A DNA stretch of 64,000 nt. Origin: Eubacteriales bacterium. Lineage in GTDB: Bacteria; Bacillota; Clostridia; Oscillospirales; CAG-272. The stretch spans positions 3,790 through 67,789 of the forward strand of contig JAZNXR010000002.1 in the NCBI GenBank assembly GCA_045593985.1, in the 5' to 3' direction. Of the stretch, positions 355-63,006 are shown one piece after another (within the stretch, counting starts at the first letter, position 1; the number at the start of each line of letters is the position of its first letter). The position numbers and the translations under genes were made by a program. The notes under the pieces are model-generated. The model saw nothing but the letters and a program-made list of their open reading frames with translations. It had not been told where the DNA came from and ran no database searches.

Positions 355-375
355 GTAGGGAGGGGTTTCCCTCCC
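355..375 (+). repeat. R1-like GTAG-headed hairpin (GTAGGGAGGGGTTTCCCTCCC)
   Basis: GTAG followed by a 7-bp perfect stem GGGAGGG/CCCTCCC; short-loop variant of the family. Confidence 0.6.
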
Positions 376-1283: not shown

Positions 1284-1309
1284 GTAGGGTGCGACGTCCC
1301 CGACGCACC
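1284..1309 (+). repeat. R1 GTAG-headed hairpin (REP-like)
   Basis: GTAG GGTGCG A CG TCCC CG A CGCACC: 6-bp stem, A.A mismatch, CG clamp, 4-nt loop. Confidence 0.8.
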
Positions 1310-1363: not shown

Positions 1364-1387
1364 GTAGGGCGGTGCCTTGGTGCCGCC
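1364..1387 (+). repeat. R1 variant GTAG-headed hairpin (CTTG loop)
   Basis: GTAG GGCGGTGC CTTG GTGCCGCC. Confidence 0.65.
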
Positions 1388-1419: not shown

Positions 1420-1445
1420 GGGCTGTCGTGGGCGCCAGCCCCTAC
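1420..1445 (-). repeat. R1 GTAG-headed hairpin (REP-like), reverse orientation
   Basis: Reverse complement is GTAG GGGCTG G CG CCCA CG A CAGCCC. Flanked by GAACAACATGGCGAA, as is the copy at 1525. Confidence 0.8.
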
Positions 1446-1524: not shown

Positions 1525-1548
1525 GGCGGGAACAAGCCCCCGCCCTAC
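1525..1548 (-). repeat. R1 variant GTAG-headed hairpin, reverse orientation
   Basis: Reverse complement is GTAG GGCGGG GGCTTGTT CCCGCC. Flank GAACAACGTGGCGAA is shared with the copy at 1420. Confidence 0.65.
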
Positions 1549-13021: not shown

Positions 13022-14764
13022 ATGGCATTTGACGCCGCATTTACCTCGGCAATAGCAGCTGAACTGTCAGGCCTATGCGTCGGCGCAAGAGTTGAAAAGC
13101 TCTTTCAGCCGTCAAAGGACAGCCTGATATTGAATTTGCGACTTGACCGTGACCGCGCGAAGGAGGGCGAACAAAACCGCCGCCTTCTTATCGACTGCGG
13201 AACGACAAGTCCGAGAATCTGCTTTACCGAGAATGAATTTGAAAATCCGAAAACACCGCCGATGCTCTGTATGCTTCTTCGTAAGCATCTGACGTCTGCG
13301 AAAATAATAGAAATAAAGCAGCTCGGCTTCGAAAGAGTAATTGAAATAACCTTCGAAAGCCGAGACGAGCTTGGCTACCTCTCAAATAAGTACATATACG
13401 CCGAGCTGATGGGTAAATTCAGCAACCTCGTATTTTGTAATGCCGAAAAGAGAGTAGTGGCTGCCTTCCACCTGACCGACCTGTCATCAGGCGTAAAGCG
13501 CCCGCTTGTTTCGGGAATGACCTATGAGCTTCCTCCCCCGCAGGAGGGCAAGATCTCCCCTCTGAGTGAGACGGAGGACGGCTTTATTTCAGCCCTTAAA
13601 GAAAGTGGCATCACCCATGCAAAATTTCTGCAAAGCCGCTATCTTGGCTTGTCGCCGCTAATCTGCCGTGAGCTGTCCTTCCGTGCAAACGGCTCGGACG
13701 ATGGCTTGAAAAAGGAATTTTTCGATCTTACGAAAAGAATAAACGAGGGCGACTATATCCCAACGCTGATAAAAACCCCCGAGGGAAAACCGCTCGAATA
13801 TTCCTTTATGCCGATAACGCAGTACGAAAACGGCGCAAAAACGGAGGAAAAGGAAAGCTTCTCGGCGCTGATTGACAGCTTTTTTGCCGAGCGAAGCCGA
13901 GCTGAACGCATAAAGCAGCGTGCTTCTGATATTTTAAAGCTGCTGACAAACGCCGAAAGCCGACTGACAAGGCGAATCTTGCTCCAGGAGGATGAGCTTT
14001 CCCTTTGCGCCGACAAGGAGCAGTTTAAAAGGTACGGCGACCTGATAACGTCAAACCTGTATCTCTTAAAACGCGGGATGACGGAGGCTACGGTAATCGA
14101 CTATTATGACGAAAGCTGTCCGGAGGTTGTTATAACCCTCGACAGCCGCCTTAGTCCATCGCAAAACGCACAGAGATATTATAAAAGGTATAATAAATGC
14201 AAATCGGCGGAAATTCACCTCCGAGAGCAAATTGCCAAGGGCAGAGAGGAGCTGCAATACCTCGACACCGTCTTTGATTCCCTCACTCGTGCCGAGACCG
14301 AGGCGGATCTGAATGAAATTCGCCGTGAGCTTTACGAATCGGGCTATGCAAGCAGGATGAAAAATTATACGGCATCAAAAATGTCAGCCCCCAAGCCGCT
14401 TGAATTCAGAACGGCAGGCGGCTGGAGAGTACTCTGCGGCAAAAACAACGCTCAAAACGATTACATTACCCACAAGGTGGCAGGCAAGGGCGATATCTGG
14501 TTTCACATCAAGGATTATCCCGGCTCCCACGTCGTGCTTATTTGCGACGGAGCCGAGCCCGATGCCATCGACTTTACCGAGGCCGCAACCGTTGCCGCCG
14601 TATATTCAAAGGCGCCTCTCGGTCAGCGTGTAACGGTCGATTATACCCGTATAAAAAATATCAAAAAGCCGCCCGCATCAAAGCCGGGCTACGTAACCTT
14701 CAGTACAAATTACTCGGCATACGTAATAAACGATCCGAAAAACCTCCCCGAACAGGTGAAATAG
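13022..14764 (+). CDS. rqcH: NFACT-family ribosome quality control protein (fibronectin-binding protein A homolog)
   Basis: NFACT-N start MAFDAAF..L, coiled-coil middle, NFACT-R DIWFH..PGSHVV motif. Confidence 0.9.
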   Translation: MAFDAAFTSAIAAELSGLCVGARVEKLFQPSKDSLILNLRLDRDRAKEGEQNRRLLIDCGTTSPRICFTENEFENPKTPPMLCMLLRKHLTSAKIIEIKQLGFERVIEITFESRDELGYLSNKYIYAELMGKFSNLVFCNAEKRVVAAFHLTDLSSGVKRPLVSGMTYELPPPQEGKISPLSETEDGFISALKESGITHAKFLQSRYLGLSPLICRELSFRANGSDDGLKKEFFDLTKRINEGDYIPTLIKTPEGKPLEYSFMPITQYENGAKTEEKESFSALIDSFFAERSRAERIKQRASDILKLLTNAESRLTRRILLQEDELSLCADKEQFKRYGDLITSNLYLLKRGMTEATVIDYYDESCPEVVITLDSRLSPSQNAQRYYKRYNKCKSAEIHLREQIAKGREELQYLDTVFDSLTRAETEADLNEIRRELYESGYASRMKNYTASKMSAPKPLEFRTAGGWRVLCGKNNAQNDYITHKVAGKGDIWFHIKDYPGSHVVLICDGAEPDAIDFTEAATVAAVYSKAPLGQRVTVDYTRIKNIKKPPASKPGYVTFSTNYSAYVINDPKNLPEQVK

Positions 14765-14812
14765 TTGCGCTCGCAAATATTTGATCGTATGTAACCTATG
14801 CAATACGCAAAT

Positions 14813-14951
14813 GTAGGGACAGGCGTCCTCGACTGTCCGTGCGGGATAAATGAATCTTTATTCAACGCAAACGTTCAAATATTTCCGTATAAATTAACCG
14901 TTTTGATAAACCAAAACGTGGTAACGGACGGTCGAGGACGCCCGTCCCTAC
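14813..14951. repeat. R1 inverted doublet (REPIN-like): two GTAG-headed hairpins, 87-bp spacer
   Basis: 14813-14838 is GTAGGGACAGGCGTCCTCGACTGTCC. Reverse complement of 14926-14951 is GTAGGGACGGGCGTCCTCGACCGTCC. Confidence 0.85.
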
Positions 14952-14993
14952 AAATTAATTTCCCCGAAATTTCACAAATGAAAGGAACTCATC

Positions 14994-15923
14994 ATGGACT
15001 CCAAAATTACTTATTCCGTATCCCTCGGACAAATAATCGATGAATTTCAGCTTGAGGAAATAACCCCCGCAGTCGACCGTGAGCGACTTATTCACAGAAG
15101 TGAGGTAAACCGTCCGGGACTTGCCCTAGCAGGTCATTTCGGCTACTTTGAGCCGGGAAGAATACAGATAGTCGGAACAAGCGAATCCGACTACATAAGC
15201 CATATTCCGGACGATAAAAAGGCAGAGGTCTTTGATAACTTCTTCTCGAAAAACCCTGTCGCTGTCGTATTTTCGACGTCGCTCCCCGTGCCGAATGAAA
15301 TGATCGAATCGGCAAACCGTTACGGAGTGCCGATCCTTCGCACCTCGCACAGAACCTCGGAATTTATGGCAGCGCTAATCGGCTCGCTCAGCGTAAGCTT
15401 GGCGCCCCGCATCACCCGTCACGGCGTCCTCGTCGAGGTCTACGGCGAAGGTCTGCTTATTCTCGGTGACAGCGGAATCGGTAAGAGCGAAACCGCAATC
15501 GAGCTTGTAAAGCGCGGACACCGTCTTATTGCAGACGATGCTGTCGAAATCAAGAAGGTCTCGGCAAAAACCCTCGTTGGCTCTGCTCCCGAGCTGATAC
15601 GTCATTACGTTGAGCTTCGCGGAATCGGAATCGTCGACGTCAAGCGCATTTTCGGTATGGGCTCGGTCAAGGATACCGAGAAGATAGATATGCTTATCAA
15701 CCTTGAGCCGTGGGTGCAGGGCAAGATGTACGACCGCTTCGGTCTTGAAGCGGAATATACCGACATCATGGGCATAATGGTGCCGACAACGGTTATTCCC
15801 GTCCGTCCGGGACGAAATCTTGCGGTCATTCTTGAAATTGCGGCAATGAACAACCGTCAGAAGAAGATGGGCTACGATACCGCAAAGGAATTCAACGAAC
15901 GTCTTATGAATATGATGATGTAA
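14994..15923 (+). CDS. hprK: HPr kinase/phosphorylase
   Basis: Walker-type GDSGIGKSE, LIADD, and EIRGLGI-like ELRGIGIVDV signature. Confidence 0.95.
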   Translation: MDSKITYSVSLGQIIDEFQLEEITPAVDRERLIHRSEVNRPGLALAGHFGYFEPGRIQIVGTSESDYISHIPDDKKAEVFDNFFSKNPVAVVFSTSLPVPNEMIESANRYGVPILRTSHRTSEFMAALIGSLSVSLAPRITRHGVLVEVYGEGLLILGDSGIGKSETAIELVKRGHRLIADDAVEIKKVSAKTLVGSAPELIRHYVELRGIGIVDVKRIFGMGSVKDTEKIDMLINLEPWVQGKMYDRFGLEAEYTDIMGIMVPTTVIPVRPGRNLAVILEIAAMNNRQKKMGYDTAKEFNERLMNMMM

Positions 15924-15949: not shown

Positions 15950-17416
15950 ATGAAAAAGCTGTTTACTGTTTTATTATTGATTTTTTCTCTTTCGGCAATT
16001 CTTATCTCGTGCGACGAGCGCGACTCAAACTGCGATCACGAGCTTGCGGCGGTCCCCTATAAGGAGGCGACCTGTCAGGAAGGCGGCAACCGTGCGCACT
16101 ATAAGTGCGGAAAGTGCGGCAAGACCTTTGCCGACGAAAAGGGCGAGAAGCTTCTTTCTGCGGATAAGGTCTACTTTGAAAAGGTTGAACACACAAATGA
16201 AGGCAACGGCTTTGCCTGCAGATACTGCGGCATTCCTTATGCCAGAGCATATGCCGATGAGATCTCATTCGCTAACGTCACCGCAAACACTCCCGAGCAG
16301 ATCACAGGCGGAATGGCTATGCTGATGGGCAAGGGGGTAAAGAAGATCCATATTTACGGCACTCTTACCTCGGAGCAGATAAAGGCAATGGCTGACGGAC
16401 TCAGCGGTAATGGCGGCGACCTCGTTATAATTTTCCACGACGTTGAAACCGTCGGCGAAGAATTCAACGGAAAGGAAGCGCTCCCCGGTTACGTTATTCT
16501 TAAAGACAAGATAGCAGTTCATAACGAAAACGGACTCAACTACTGGAACACCGTAAATAAGAAGTACAGTCTCTATCTCACCTCCGATATAACGATGACT
16601 GTCCCCGAGGGCAGCGGAAGCAACTGGAAGCCGGTACACCTTGAAACTCATATCTACGGTAACGGCTACAAGATCAAGGGACTTCGAATCGTAAATCCCG
16701 AATACGACGATTTGGCAGGTTATGCGGCGGGCTTCTGCTACGGTATGAAGCAGGACTACTCGACGATAACCGATCTTCATTTTGTTGACGCATACGTCAA
16801 AGCGACGGGTGAAGGCGGCTATGCAGGAATTATCTCGGCATCGGCCTGGAAGGGCGCAGTTATAAGCGGCTGCAGCGTATCGGGCGAGGTCATCGGCACT
16901 CATCAGGTCGGCGGCATCGTCGGTATAGGAAGCGGAGATATTATCGGCTGCGTTAATAATGCGGCGGTAACAGCGACCGAAAATACGGCAGGCGGTATTG
17001 TCGGACAGAGCAGCGGAAATGTTATAGGCTGTGTTAACTACGGAACGGTTAAATGCACCAATACCGAATACGGCGGCGCGGGCGGCATCGTCGGCTCTGC
17101 TACGAACGGCTCCGTTGTCGGTTGTGTAAACCTTGGAAGCGTCAGCGTAAGCGGAGCAAATTCTGCTGCGGGCGGCGTTGCATTTATGATTCCGAGCTTC
17201 GTTGAAGGAAGCACCAACTTCTGGCAGAAGAACGGTAACGTAAAGTACGGTATCGGTGACACCTCCTCCAATAAAGAGGCGACCGAGATCAAGGGAAGTA
17301 CTACCTTTGAGACCGCAGTTAACGCAGTAAATGCGAAGCTTGAGGAAAAGGGAATCACCTACCGACTCGTTCTGACAAACGATTCGGCTTGTCCTGTCGG
17401 TGTAAAGCGCAGCTGA
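15950..17416 (+). CDS. lipoprotein with Cys-rich N-terminal region and GLUG-motif repeats
   Basis: Lipobox LISC. Repeated GGIVG..G.V..C.N.G motifs. Strong SD AGGAGG. Confidence 0.7.
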   Translation: MKKLFTVLLLIFSLSAILISCDERDSNCDHELAAVPYKEATCQEGGNRAHYKCGKCGKTFADEKGEKLLSADKVYFEKVEHTNEGNGFACRYCGIPYARAYADEISFANVTANTPEQITGGMAMLMGKGVKKIHIYGTLTSEQIKAMADGLSGNGGDLVIIFHDVETVGEEFNGKEALPGYVILKDKIAVHNENGLNYWNTVNKKYSLYLTSDITMTVPEGSGSNWKPVHLETHIYGNGYKIKGLRIVNPEYDDLAGYAAGFCYGMKQDYSTITDLHFVDAYVKATGEGGYAGIISASAWKGAVISGCSVSGEVIGTHQVGGIVGIGSGDIIGCVNNAAVTATENTAGGIVGQSSGNVIGCVNYGTVKCTNTEYGGAGGIVGSATNGSVVGCVNLGSVSVSGANSAAGGVAFMIPSFVEGSTNFWQKNGNVKYGIGDTSSNKEATEIKGSTTFETAVNAVNAKLEEKGITYRLVLTNDSACPVGVKRS

Positions 17417-23552: not shown

Positions 23553-23720
23553 CCGTTCCTGCGAGATCCCGATGCCACAAGTGGCATCGCCCTACGGGTT
23601 CGACTGCATCCCGCCGTGTCATTCTGAGTGTAGCGAAGCGGAATCGAACGGCGAAGCCGCGCGAAGTGCAACGAAGCGGAATCTCGGCGGGATTACGCTC
23701 AGGATGACACGCAGGAACGG
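23553..23720 (+). repeat. R3 element (one 96-nt head unit, core, tail) bounded by 11-bp inverted flanks
   Basis: About 98% identical to the unit at 62832-62927. Flanks CCGTTCCTGCG/CGCAGGAACGG. Fills the mnmG-rsmG spacer. Confidence 0.85.
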
Positions 23721-25591: not shown

Positions 25592-25614
25592 CGTATTTTC
25601 CGTAAAAGTGTTAT

Positions 25615-25724
25615 TTGCCTCGCCCTTTGGGAGAGGTGTCGGTCGAAGACCGACGGAGAGGGTAAAAATATCTTTGAGATCCCCTCTCACCGCCTAAAGG
25701 CGGAGCTCCCCCGGAGGGGGAGCC
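25615..25724 (+). repeat. R2 long element (five consecutive hairpins)
   Basis: TTGCCTCGCCC-TTTG-GGAGAGG, TCGGTC-GAA-GACCGA, GAGAGGG..CCCTCTC, CGCC-TAAA-GGCG, GCTCCCC-CGGA-GGGGAGC. Paralogous copy at 28319-28417. Confidence 0.85.
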
Positions 25725-28283: not shown

Positions 28284-28318
28284 GGAAAAAGGAAAGCAAA
28301 ATCGGTAAGAGCGTTGTT

Positions 28319-28417
28319 TTGCCTCGCCCTACGGGAGAGGTGTCAACCGAAGGTTGACGGAGAGGGGAAATCGCCCTCTCACCCGACTTCGTCGGGAGCT
28401 CCCCCCAAGGGGGAGCC
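28319..28417 (+). repeat. R2 long element, second copy
   Basis: Same five-hairpin order as 25615-25724, with covarying stems (TCAACC-GAA-GGTTGA; CCGAC-TTC-GTCGG). Confidence 0.85.
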
Positions 28418-36637: not shown

Positions 36638-36675
36638 AGATTTCTCCGTTTTGGGATATTGAGAATTTGCGGCAA

Positions 36676-36863
36676 CGCCGTCTTGCCTTCCCCTGAGGGG
36701 AAGGTGGCCGAGCAAGGCGAAGCCGCGCCGAGGTCGGATGAGGTGGATCAAACTTTAAAAATACGATTATGGCAAATTAGTTGCTTCACCTTCGGAACAC
36801 CTCATCCGTCTGCTCCTGCGTCGCAGACACCTTCCCCTGAGGGGAAGGCAAGAAAACGTGGCG
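36676..36863. repeat. R2b inverted doublet (two roughly 68-nt arms, 52-bp spacer)
   Basis: Left arm is CGCCGTCTTGCCTTCCCCTGAGGGGAAGGTG..GGATGAGGTG. Reverse complement of the right arm is CGCCACGTTTTCTTGCCTTCCCCTCAGGGGAAGGTG..GGATGAGGTG. Confidence 0.85.
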
Positions 36864-40951: not shown

Positions 40952-41089
40952 GTAGGGGGCGACGTCCTCGACGCCCCGTTGCAACGTTTGAAATCTTAAG
41001 ACCGTTTCTCACTGTTGCATAAATGTTTATAATTATACAAAAAAGATACATTGCTTTTAATGCGGGGCGTCGAGGACGTCGCCCCCTAC
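40952..41089. repeat. R1 inverted doublet (REPIN-like), 27-nt perfect arms, 86-bp spacer
   Basis: GTAGGGGGCGACGTCCTCGACGCCCCG at 40952, and its exact reverse complement ending at 41089. Confidence 0.9.
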
Positions 41090-42497: not shown

Positions 42498-42523
42498 GTA
42501 GGGACAGGCGTCCTCGACTGTCC
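42498..42523 (+). repeat. R1 GTAG-headed hairpin, solo copy
   Basis: Identical to 14813-14838. Followed by GGTGCTCCCACGC, as the copy at 1284 is followed by GCTGCTCCCACGC. Confidence 0.85.
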
Positions 42524-42577
42524 GGTGCTCCCACGCTCTGTACATTCTCTATTAAAAAAGATAGATCGAACGTCGTC

Positions 42578-42622
42578 TTGCCTCGCCCTTCGGGAGAGGT
42601 GCCCCGAAGGGGCGGAGAGGGT
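42578..42622 (+). repeat. R2 half element (first two hairpins only)
   Basis: TTGCCTCGCCC-TTCG-GGAGAGGTG CCCC-GAA-GGGG CGGAGAGGGT. Confidence 0.8.
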
Positions 42623-42624
42623 GT

Positions 42625-42658
42625 AAAAAAGGACGCCTTTCGGCGTCCTTTTCTTTTG
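42625..42658 (-). terminator. rho-independent terminator of the SDR/pdxK operon
   Basis: AAGGACGCC-TTTC-GGCGTCCTT with flanking A and T runs. Confidence 0.85.
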
Positions 42659-44481: not shown

Positions 44482-44557
44482 GGGAGCATAGCTCAGCTGG
44501 GAGAGCATCTGCCTTACAAGCAGAGGGTCATAGGTTCGAGCCCTATTGTTCCCACCA
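44482..44557 (+). tRNA. tRNA-Val (anticodon TAC), CCA encoded
   Basis: Cloverleaf folded by hand: acceptor GGGAGCA/TGTTCCC, anticodon loop CTTACAA, T-loop TTCGAGC. Confidence 0.9.
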
Positions 44558-44561
44558 TCAC

Positions 44562-44638
44562 GGCCCGGTAGTTCAGTTGGTTAGAACGCTAGCCTGTCAC
44601 GCTAGAGGTCAGGGGTTCGAGTCCCCTTCGGGTCGCCA
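44562..44638 (+). tRNA. tRNA-Asp (anticodon GTC), CCA encoded
   Basis: Acceptor GGCCCGG/TCGGGTC, anticodon loop CTGTCAC, T-loop TTCGAGT. Confidence 0.9.
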
Positions 44639-44683
44639 CTTTTATTTTCGGCATTCTGCCAAGCTTATTGAGTTGCCGAATAT

Positions 44684-44759
44684 GCCTCGATAGCTCAGTT
44701 GGTAGAGCAGTAGACTGAAAATCTACGTGTCGTTGGTTCAATTCCGACTCGAGGCACCA
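44684..44759 (+). tRNA. tRNA-Phe (anticodon GAA), CCA encoded
   Basis: Acceptor GCCTCGA/TCGAGGC, anticodon loop CTGAAAA, T-loop TTCAATT. Confidence 0.9.
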
Positions 44760-44803
44760 AAAAAGAATAAGTGTGTATCGCAGCCACGCGGTACATACGG
44801 TAT

Positions 44804-44879
44804 GCGGATTTAGCTCATTTGGTAGAGCGCCACCTTGCCAAGGTGGAGGTGGCGGGTTCGAGCCCCGTAATCCGCTCCA
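44804..44879 (+). tRNA. tRNA-Gly (anticodon GCC), CCA encoded
   Basis: Acceptor GCGGATT/AATCCGC, anticodon loop TTGCCAA, T-loop TTCGAGC. Confidence 0.9.
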
Positions 44880-44881
44880 AC

Positions 44882-44922
44882 AAAAAAGCCTAATTTGTCT
44901 ACTTGACAAATTAGGCTTTTTT
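44882..44922 (+). terminator. rho-independent terminator of the tRNA operon
   Basis: A6, GCCTAATTTGTC-TACTT-GACAAATTAGGC, T6. Confidence 0.9.
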
Positions 44923-45075
44923 GAATGATGTTTGCCTTCGACAAATGATGTCGTTTCACTAATGATGCCGCTGACGCTAATGATGTCGGCTTCGCCTAAT
45001 GTTTTGCGGCAAACATCGCATCATTGCGAGTGAAACGAGCAACATCATTATGCGGAGCATAACATCATATCGCCG
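44923..45075. repeat. R4 array: AATGATG-headed units (17-20 nt period) followed by CATCAT(T)-tailed units
   Basis: AATGATG at 44924, 44944, 44961, 44979 (and AATGTTT at 44998). CATCATT at 45019 and 45043, CATCAT at 45063. Confidence 0.7.
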
Positions 45076-45168
45076 TAGGCGATGCCTATTTAATCAAGGC
45101 AAAACGAAAGTAGAATACTTTTACTTACTTTTACCTTGGTTCTGCTCCGTTTGGTTACTCTTTCGCAG

Positions 45169-45198
45169 AAAAAAGCAAGTCGAAAGACTTGCTTTTTT
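45169..45198. terminator. orphan bidirectional terminator-like hairpin
   Basis: A6, GCAAGTC-GAAA-GACTTGC, T6. No ORF on either side. Confidence 0.7.
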
Positions 45199-45286
45199 CA
45201 ATGATATCCGCCCTTCGGTCGGAATAAATCATCTTCGATGATGAAATCACCTTCGGTGATGAGATCCGTCGGGGCGACGGATGAGG
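45199..45286 (+). repeat. string of small hairpins related to R4/R2b (ends in GGATGAGG)
   Basis: ATCAC-CTTCG-GTGAT and ATCCGTC-GGGGC-GACGGAT, with GATGA motifs between. Confidence 0.5.
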
Positions 45287-45365
45287 TTTTCATTCATTTG
45301 TTAAACATCTTTTTGTTTTTACATATAATGTTATTACCCCAATAAAAATAATTTCTCAAAATCCA

Positions 45366-45394
45366 TTGACAAAACGGTCGCTCCGTGATATAAT
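45366..45394 (+). promoter_or_regulatory. sigma-A promoter of tRNA-Cys
   Basis: TTGACA, 17-nt spacer, TATAAT preceded by CGTGA. Confidence 0.8.
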
Positions 45395-45411
45395 ACCCAT
45401 GTTCCGAAAAC

Positions 45412-45486
45412 GGCGACATAGCCAAGTGGTAAGGCCACGGTCTGCAAAACCGTTATTCTCCAGTTCAAATCTGGATGTCGCCTCCA
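45412..45486 (+). tRNA. tRNA-Cys (anticodon GCA), CCA encoded
   Basis: Acceptor GGCGACA/TGTCGCC, 3-bp D stem, anticodon loop CTGCAAA, T-loop TTCAAAT. Confidence 0.9.
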
Positions 45487-45527
45487 AAACAAAAGAGCAC
45501 CCAATTGGGTGCTCTTTTGTTTTGGAG
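45482..45527 (+). terminator. 21-bp perfect hairpin overlapping the tRNA-Cys 3' end
   Basis: CTCCAAAACAAAAGAGCACCC-AATT-GGGTGCTCTTTTGTTTTGGAG. The left arm starts with the tRNA's CTCCA. Confidence 0.7.
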
Positions 45528-62712: not shown

Positions 62713-62735
62713 TGATTTAGCAAATGTCTTTTTGC

Positions 62736-63006
62736 GAGATCCCGATGCCACAAGCGGCATCGCCCTACGGGTTCGACTGCGTCCCGCCGTGTCATTCTGA
62801 GTGAAGCGAAGCGGAATCGAACGGCGAAGCCGAGATCCCGATGCCACAAGTGGCATCGCCCTGCGGGTTCGACTGCGTCCCGCCGTGTCATTCTGAGTGT
62901 AGCGAAGCGGAATCGAACGGCGAAGCCGCGCGAAGTGCAACGAAGCGGAATCTCGGCGGGACTTCGCTCAGGATGACAAGGCGGGACTCCGCTCAGGATG
63001 ACCGCG
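62736..63006 (+). repeat. R3 element with a tandemly duplicated 96-nt head unit and a duplicated tail
   Basis: Units at 62736-62831 and 62832-62927 (period 96, a few mismatches). Core at 62928-62953. Two tails GGCGGGAC..CGCTCAGGATGAC at 62954-62977 and 62980-63002. Confidence 0.9.

Follow-up and report, generated by a model that had tools for sequence, protein, structure and literature searches.

Repetitive extragenic palindromic (REP) elements and their REP-associated tyrosine transposases (RAYTs, or TnpA_REP) have been studied almost only in Proteobacteria. TnpA_REP of E. coli and other bacteria binds the folded REP on single-stranded DNA (ssDNA) and cuts and rejoins nearby (PMC8266576, PMC6006769), and in vitro it requires a GTAG tetranucleotide and an interrupted hairpin (PMC8266576). 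In TnpA_REP subclass 2.4 (Quentin et al. 2018, PMC6006769), the same as Group 4 of the RAYTs in Bertels et al. 2017, the REPs are long canonical hairpins that have GTAG and G-C pairs at their foot, and in-frame REPs within the tnpA_REP genes are a unique feature of this subclass (PMC6006769). Here we analyse an inverted doublet of GTAG-headed hairpins that lies between rqcH and hprK, at positions 14813–14951 of a 64,000-nt stretch of Oscillospirales DNA (the window; assembly GCA_045593985.1, contig JAZNXR010000002.1).

According to Bertels et al., only Group 1 RAYTs occur in Clostridia, and Group 1 was not found linked to abundant REP repeats. An earlier note on the window had remarked that a population of this kind is not well described in Clostridia, and the literature searched here agrees. 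The core REP surveys (PMC3733652, PMC2817692) leave Firmicutes and Clostridia unmentioned, the text supplementary files of PMC6006769 hold no Firmicutes names, and our literature search for RAYT or REPIN (REP doublets forming hairpins) with Firmicutes terms returned nothing on this family. We regard it as highly probable that the doublet is a pair of REP units of a family expanded in some Oscillospirales, with a domesticated Y1/HUH transposase of the RAYT/TnpA_REP type as its agent.

The doublet and its repeat family

The doublet consists of two units and a spacer. Here and below, L-numbers denote the public loci or contigs compared, and P-numbers the protein homologues or representatives.

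14813..14838, plus strand: REP unit U1, GTAG GGACAG G CG TCCT CG A CTGTCC, with identical copies at 42498 and in the RAYT genes of L016 and L202
14839..14925, plus strand: doublet spacer, 87 nt, AT-rich
14926..14951, minus strand: REP unit U2, GTAG GGACGG G CG TCCT CG A CCGTCC, with a compensatory A-T to G-C change relative to U1

The two inverted 26-nt units, 87 nt apart with their GTAG heads facing outward, are built exactly as the earlier note described them, from GTAG, a 6-bp stem, an R·A mismatch, a CG clamp and a TCCT loop. Their only differences are at unit positions 9 (A/G) and 22 (T/C), two bases that form a pair within each hairpin. Because the differences fall on mutually pairing positions, each hairpin is perfect, and arm-to-arm pairing would have two mismatches. 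The chance that two random differences make up one complementary pair is ~0.008 by our own arithmetic (8/325 × 1/3). In ssDNA folding, every 26-nt unit of the window has an energy between −8.7 and −10.1 kcal/mol and the same structure, in which a 6-bp stem, a 1×1 mismatch and 2 bp lead up to a 4-nt loop and GTAG stays unpaired.

The same hairpin recurs far beyond the doublet. We scanned public genomes, one per species, with the pattern GTAGGGNNNNRCGTCCTCGANNNNCC, which leaves four stem pairs free. All four are Watson-Crick in 142 of the 146 matches, against a mean of 17.8 and a maximum of 35 with shuffled partners, and 17 different 5′ half-stems are in use. As the earlier note had held, the conserved entity is the single hairpin; this covariation shows it. 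The head is equally constant. When hairpins were located by core and stem only, in DNA unselected by the pattern, GTAG stood 5′ and G stood 3′ of the stem in 24/24 each, and among hairpins located without the head in the pattern loci, GTAG stood 5′ in 159/161.

The family is not limited to a handful of copies. Besides the 10 units in the 64-kb window, the pattern is found at ≥120 public loci, and a looser census counts 345 units in 852 kb of compared DNA. Nearly all the loci belong to Oscillospirales (Acutalibacteraceae, Oscillospiraceae, Ruminococcus flavefaciens, Gemmiger formicilis), and the genomes among the matches listed are mostly metagenome-assembled ones from rumen and gut. The core GTAG-stem-RCGTCCTCGA-stem is thus common to many uncultured gut and rumen Oscillospirales. 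A metagenome scan with HprK gave 80 loci at 57–85% identity; rqcH-hprK synteny is kept in none of them, so they do not bear on insertion at this junction and were taken as a negative control. The 471 kb around hprK of more distant Clostridia hold only 3 such hairpins, so the family has expanded in certain lineages only.

The units cluster and pair. Neighbouring units take all four orientations, with an excess of GTAG-outward pairs (62 of 144 neighbour pairs) and spacing peaks at ~20–32 nt and ~85 nt. The doublets with short spacers (19–32 nt) often combine two different REP types, and their spacers are found again elsewhere in the same genome or in other genomes (L073; L074 with L028; L072 with L110).

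A RAYT-like gene and the REP pair inside it

The earlier note had likened the units to REP elements tied to RAYTs, and in related genomes they are physically associated with a TnpA_REP-like Y1/HUH gene. Searching the open reading frames (ORFs) of the compared loci with E. coli RayT (MG1655) by phmmer matched five ORFs, and a subsequent family hidden Markov model (HMM) found eight genes or fragments in 7 of the 120 pattern loci, with zero matches in ~500 kb of control loci. The encoded proteins are ~170 aa long and match Pfam Y1_Tnp (PF01797) at 26.2 and 28.9 bits over a cut-off of 23. Their best solved-structure match is 4ER8, the E. coli TnpA_REP. The HUH, WQ, DHxxR and Y...N motifs are each present in at least 115 of the 120 close homologues (HUH in 119, Y...N in 117). 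The family is large, with 6,493 matches at E ≤ 1e-5 in a 90%-clustered collection; representatives at 50% identity number 9,095 at E ≤ 1e-10 and 285 at E ≤ 1e-30.

The Y1_Tnp match, along with weak matches to the structures of ISDra2 and IS200 TnpA, also suits another origin, in which an ordinary TnpA of the IS200 type moves the units and these are what is left, as subterminal hairpins, of decayed IS200/IS605 elements (palindrome-associated transposable elements). However, the IS200 match is far weaker than the RAYT one (18 vs 66 bits; NCBIfam REP_Tyr_transpos, NF047646, scores 54–68 bits, below its curated cut-off of 80), and the homologue is probably closer to TnpA_REP. In three 20-kb contexts the gene stands among housekeeping genes, alone or after a small helix-turn-helix (HTH) gene, and neither tnpB nor left or right insertion sequence ends were found there. 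A GTAG-headed hairpin is moreover the signature of REPs and not of IS200 (PMC6006769). We give the IS200/IS605 origin very little chance.

Directly upstream of the RAYT-like gene and co-directional with it, a small XRE-type HTH gene is seen in 5 of 9 cases, and it may be a regulator partner. In L204 a small 57-aa ORF stands in its place. The five cases are:

L016, 5527–5865: upstream HTH gene
L016, ORF upstream of 6622: upstream HTH gene
L104: upstream HTH gene
L202, 9754–9999: upstream HTH gene
L203, 9778–9990: upstream HTH gene

The units lie inside the gene, not merely beside it. All nine RAYT genes with full-length DNA carry two units, inverted and in frame, which flank the HUH-coding segment at 133–157 nt from each other. 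REPs are expected to have at least one copy <1 kb from a cognate tnpA_REP gene, and in related genomes these units do. The intragenic units are distributed as follows.

L003, L104, L108, L202, L203: one gene each with intragenic units
L016: two genes with intragenic units
L085, L204: one gene each with intragenic units, and units also beside the gene

The first unit encodes peptides such as VGTGVLDCP between β1 and αA, and in L016 and L202 it is the one identical to U1 of the window. The second lies just after the HUH strand, where it encodes peptides such as GPSGTPVPT and forms a 12-residue insertion relative to E. coli RayT. Among the 120 closest homologues, 113 have both site peptides. At site 1, reverse-complementary codons could encode the two variable residues of the peptide in 113/114 (shuffled mean 55), and hence it is the base-pairing that is kept, not the peptide.

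Each of the two L016 paralogues has a REP type of its own. In the second, a hairpin GGGCRAT TCACGW ATYGCCC stands at both sites, once more with a compensatory change between its two arms. Many, not all, of the more distant representatives have other peptide pairs at these sites. One such pair, VGDAALGVP with GTPKAASPT, is encoded by mutually reverse-complementary DNA (a single example, back-translated by hand), and another, VGAIHESPE with RAIRESPL, matches the hairpin type whose inverted pair lies in the DNA of the second L016 paralogue.

Some homologues go further. At these sites P0291, P0285, P0371 and P0383 repeat hairpin-coded peptides several times, in tandem and in frame, which looks as if REPs multiply inside the RAYT gene. 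In P0025 and P0030 the C-terminal end is the read-through REP peptide RDVEDAVPY.

It is possible, though we would rather doubt it, that the RAYT gene of this Oscillospirales clade is built around its own REPs, with a cognate in-frame pair that brackets the HUH segment, changes type with the transposase lineage and holds on to its base-pairing at the cost of the peptide. If functional, the gene-internal pair would be more than two loops tolerating insertions; it could serve as the master copy or source from which the genomic REPs derive, or as a site where the enzyme recognises or regulates itself. The link between transposase and repeat would then be tighter than in the known REPtron layout, and the REP type of a genome could be read from a protein sequence.

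The intragenic pair has the same geometry as the intergenic doublets, GTAG outward and plus then minus, at 133–157 nt. This raises the idea that the intergenic doublets are decayed debris of RAYT genes, namely the segment between two intragenic units. At maximum sensitivity, the matches of the family HMM to intergenic copies are confined to the hairpin-coded residues, at E-values ≥0.1, and it has no match in the window. Thus tested, the idea is not supported and we find it scarcely credible.

As a mobile REP unit, each hairpin would act on ssDNA, with its unpaired 5′ GTAG as a guide and a G directly 3′ of the stem. The stem is GC-rich and free in sequence if paired, beneath a conserved upper part of R·A mismatch, CG clamp and YCCN loop. 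By analogy with E. coli TnpA_REP, a RAYT-like enzyme would bind the folded hairpin, read GTAG, and cut and rejoin nearby, by which units would be copied or lost at gene junctions. The invariant GTAG, 3′ G, R·A mismatch and loop, together with free but paired stems, fit a recognition of shape plus a few bases. Hairpin perfection is presumably kept by selection for RAYT recognition or by templated repair within the hairpin.

Units in the window and their gain and loss at gene junctions

Besides U1 and U2, the window has eight further units. The earlier note had located all of them, and all exist.

355..374, plus strand: short REP variant, GTAG GGAGGG GTTT CCCTCC
1284..1309, plus strand: REP unit, stem GGTGCG/CGCACC, loop TCCC, first in a four-unit cluster
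1364..1387, plus strand: REP of another type, GGCGGTGCCTTGGTGCCGCC, in inverted pair with the unit at 1420 over a 32-nt spacer
1420..1445, minus strand: REP unit, stem GGGCTG/CAGCCC, loop CCCA
1525..1548, minus strand: REP of the 1364 type (GGCGGG..CCCGCC), GGCGGGGGCTTGTTCCCGCC
40952..40977, plus strand: REP unit, left arm of the second long doublet, stem GGGGCG/CGCCCC
41064..41089, minus strand: REP unit, right arm of the second long doublet, identical to the 40952 unit, 86-nt spacer
42498..42523, plus strand: singlet REP identical to U1, between minus-strand genes

The ten GTAGGG-headed GC-rich hairpins include two long doublets, one short doublet and one four-unit cluster, and GTAG abuts the stem directly in all. 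A REP is defined by a 5′ GT[AG]G located 0–2 nt from the hairpin foot and by a length of 20–40 nt, ranges into which the 26-nt units fall. Seven copies have the strict architecture, each with 6/6 stem pairs; a loose pattern gives 8 further matches with at most 4/6 stem pairs, which are therefore chance matches. The exact U1/U2 consensus occurs 3 times in the window versus 0 in 100 shuffles, and a GTAG with a GC-rich hairpin occurs 39 times versus 17.1 ± 4.0 in simulations (maximum 26). The 1525 unit with ~30 nt of flank (1506–1563) is 90% identical to L103 288–343 of an unrelated genome, which suggests a larger conserved composite repeat.

Five intergenic gaps, each with co-directional genes on either side, contain all ten units, and every unit comes downstream of a coding region. 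Such placement is typical too of REPs considered to act as RNA (PMC3733652). The hairpins might then be primarily RNA elements, such as 3′-end stabilisers, attenuators or terminators, kept by selection on the transcript and not mobile as DNA. However, no T-tract follows the hairpins, and a terminator scan gave one weak site, on the opposite strand inside the spacer, with none overlapping U1 or U2. The units take both orientations relative to transcription, the plus-strand 42498 unit lying between minus-strand genes, and GTAG is invariant on the DNA 5′ side regardless of gene direction. The same units stand in frame within a transposase gene, and the site is absent altogether from close relatives. 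Rfam at gathering thresholds finds only five tRNAs in the window and no family at the units, and a search for sigma-70-like promoters in the intergenic region of the doublet found none. Primary RNA elements are in our judgement very unlikely, although the units may have a secondary, co-opted RNA role.

If the units are mobile REPs, their sites should differ among relatives, and they do. An exact look-up of the window's HprK in a contig index gave no match; we found close relatives by protein search with HprK and compared their contigs at the junctions. The rqcH-hprK site is empty, filled or differently filled among them.

L209, HprK 95% identical to that of the window: 20 nt from the rqcH stop to the hprK ribosome-binding site, an empty site
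L207, HprK 92%: the same 229-nt intergenic region and doublet as the window
L210, HprK about 92% (an estimate from sharing a ≥90% cluster with L207): unrelated sequence, 201 nt
L208, HprK 89%: unrelated sequence, 219 nt
14765..14976 of the window, plus strand: intergenic segment of ~210 nt, the doublet and both flanks, absent from L209 by alignment

Elsewhere on the L209 contig there is a unit identical to U1, and sister contigs likewise have many units. Between the window (14744–15028) and L207, only 2 mismatches occur in 285 nt (99%), whereas the flanking genes are ~70–90% identical in 100-nt bins. This tract covers the last 21 nt of rqcH, the entire intergenic region and the first 35 nt of hprK. 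Since the cassette is near-identical and the flanks are ~80% identical, the cassette is much younger than the divergence of the two genomes. The near-identity could come from a recent insertion, a transfer by recombination or a metagenome assembly artefact, and cassettes of this kind, bearing REPs at gene junctions, may be undergoing transfer between species.

The neighbouring GNAT-rqcH junction varies as well. In the window it measures 3 nt and is empty, whereas L209 and L210 each have a degenerate singlet there and L207 a full doublet with an 87-nt spacer. The orthologous singlets of L209 and L210 share an odd outer G·T pair and differ by two compensatory double changes (stems GGGGCG/CGCCCT and GGACCG/CGGTCT). 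The presence or absence of units among relatives is thus seen at both junctions.

The L207 doublet insert at the GNAT-rqcH junction (L207 755–1040) is bracketed by a direct repeat, CAGGAGTAA, made up of a stop codon and a ribosome-binding site, and its right flank resembles that of the window doublet (TTTCCCC..TTTCACAA; the two cassettes read AATTAATTTCCCCGAAATTTCACAAAT vs TTTTTCCCCAATTTATTTTCACAAT). Both features would suit a conventional miniature inverted-repeat transposable element (MITE), either the doublet or a ~210–260-nt cassette, whose arms are terminal inverted repeats (TIRs) for a DDE transposase that makes a target-site duplication. The folding of the whole 156-nt doublet region as one long hairpin (−41.8 kcal/mol, z −8.3) would suit it too. 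However, the repeat lies 30–85 nt outside the arms, and a duplicate of stop codon and ribosome-binding site is explicable by selection alone. No target-site duplication abuts the arms, and none is found at the rqcH-hprK site. The units are found as singlets as well, neighbours take any of the four relative orientations, each arm is a hairpin with a covarying stem of which TIRs have no need, and the associated enzyme is a Y1 transposase, with no DDE transposase associated. A MITE is in our view very unlikely.

The doublet is a BIME-like pair of REPs (BIME, bacterial interspersed mosaic element), and there is a faint hint that the ~86-nt doublet may be copied as one unit. The spacing of 85–87 nt recurs in seven doublets (window 14813 and 40952, two in L207, and one each in L021, L059 and L069). 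The spacer of the 14813 doublet is similar to those of window 40952 (z 2.4, in reverse orientation) and L207 796 (z 2.9), and the weakly similar spacers share the blocks A.GCAaTG.ATCTTT.TT and ACGTGGYAAC only when oriented alike. The two window doublets and the second L207 doublet keep the same orientation relative to the downstream gene. Against the doublets of distant genomes, the ~86-nt spacers show no similarity.

Several points weigh against a RAYT-driven REP family as we propose it. The 64-kb window has no RAYT-like ORF by phmmer or the family HMM, in line with the earlier note, and we infer the presence of a RAYT in its own genome. For the Oscillospirales proteins, catalysis and mobilisation would follow from the biochemistry of E. 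coli, Stenotrophomonas and Marinomonas by analogy. The NCBIfam RAYT score of 66 bits is under the curated cut-off of 80, and the residue after Y...N is V in 59 and P in ~18 of 120 homologues, the class-2 signature being Y...NP. The basal stem of 6 bp falls one pair short of the published REP descriptor (a basal stem of at least 7 paired nt, a 1–3-nt bulge and a second stem); this descriptor is a detection rule and not a definition, and 4 of 66 known REP families also violate it (PMC6006769). The ~86-nt spacers barely align, so that replication of the doublet as a unit is only a possibility. Lastly, L202 and L203 have almost no intergenic units within 20 kb despite an intact intragenic pair. 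A RAYT gene is thus not always accompanied by an expanded repeat population, and the gene-internal pair can persist without visible local REP expansion.

The neighbourhood of the RAYT gene (ctsR-clpC, comEC, EF-Tu) was looked for in the window and is not present. L204, which has the gene, and L207 were considered as parts of one metagenome-assembled genome; given the wide distance between their protein accessions, they probably belong to two genomes.

Other variable or repeated features were seen on the way. A 488-aa gene between hprK and the HU gene (window 15950–17416) is present in the window and L208 and absent from L207, L209 and L210, a pattern that implies a gene-level indel adjoining the REP site; for the L208 homologue no Pfam match is recorded. 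There is also a second and unrelated family of intergenic repeats, which consists in order of GTCTTGCCTCGCCCTTCGGGAGAGGTG, a short GC hairpin and GGAGAGGGT and has nested palindromes. Its copies frequently adjoin GTAG units, and a similar sequence occupies the rqcH-hprK gap of L210. In the window they are the following.

267–320, 25614–25666, 28318–28370 and 42575–42629: copies of the second repeat family
36672–36706 and 36828–36862: an inverted pair of the same family
1478–1500: possibly a further copy

A 157-nt repeat lies at 23562–23718, 62735–62891 and 62831–62987, its 23562 and 62831 copies being 95% identical, and includes GTAG CGATGCCACTTGTGGCATCG hairpins, which differ in kind from the REP units. 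A perfect palindrome of 23+23 nt (45482–45527), directly 3′ of the last tRNA in a five-tRNA cluster (44482–45483), is probably a terminator.

Comparison with known REP systems

The searched literature holds no GTAG-REP populations in Firmicutes or Clostridia, and Oscillospirales would provide a second, phylogenetically distant setting for testing how RAYTs recognise and spread REPs. The natural series of compensatory mutations is useful for working out which hairpin features the enzyme reads. Practically, the family accounts for intergenic repeats that will confuse the assembly and binning of metagenome-derived Oscillospirales genomes.

By its features, the Oscillospirales protein resembles subclass 2.4 (PMC6006769). 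Shared with that system are a GC-rich hairpin that has GTAG at its 5′ foot and begins its stem with G-C pairs, the ‘long’ interrupted form of this hairpin, extragenic multi-copy units in inverted pairs and clusters, and in-frame REPs within the transposase gene. Common to both are also the HUH and Tyr motifs, as well as the WQ...R region to which a part in recognising GTAG is ascribed. Subclass 2.4 is however described as abundant in Cyanobacteria and Bacteroidetes (PMC6006769), whereas the host here is Oscillospirales. The basal stem here is 6 bp and the Y motif is mostly Y...NV. One intragenic unit here precedes HUH, whereas the insertions in PMC6006769 are ‘generally between HuH and Y’. The pair here is near-universal in the close clade (113/120) and recognisable in many, not all, distant representatives.

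The E. coli REP/BIME system with RayT (YafM; 4ER8) is alike in having GTAG with an imperfect palindrome and an internal mismatch, and several REP types paired in alternating orientation over short conserved linkers. However, the E. coli rayT is flanked by REPs and not interrupted by them, its REPs are longer and its protein is only remotely similar to the Oscillospirales one (E 5e-4).

The REPINs of Pseudomonas fluorescens SBW25 (Bertels and Rainey) share the inverted REP doublets, the preferred spacing, the long hairpin of the whole doublet and the association with a single-copy RAYT. They differ in that the ~86-nt spacers here show barely any conservation and it is the single hairpin that the compensatory change favours; conserved spacers occur here only in the short-spacer (19–32 nt) doublets of other genomes. 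The Oscillospirales family, a REP/BIME family with its cognate RAYT, extends a system that is mainly proteobacterial to a new lineage and does not constitute an element of a new kind.

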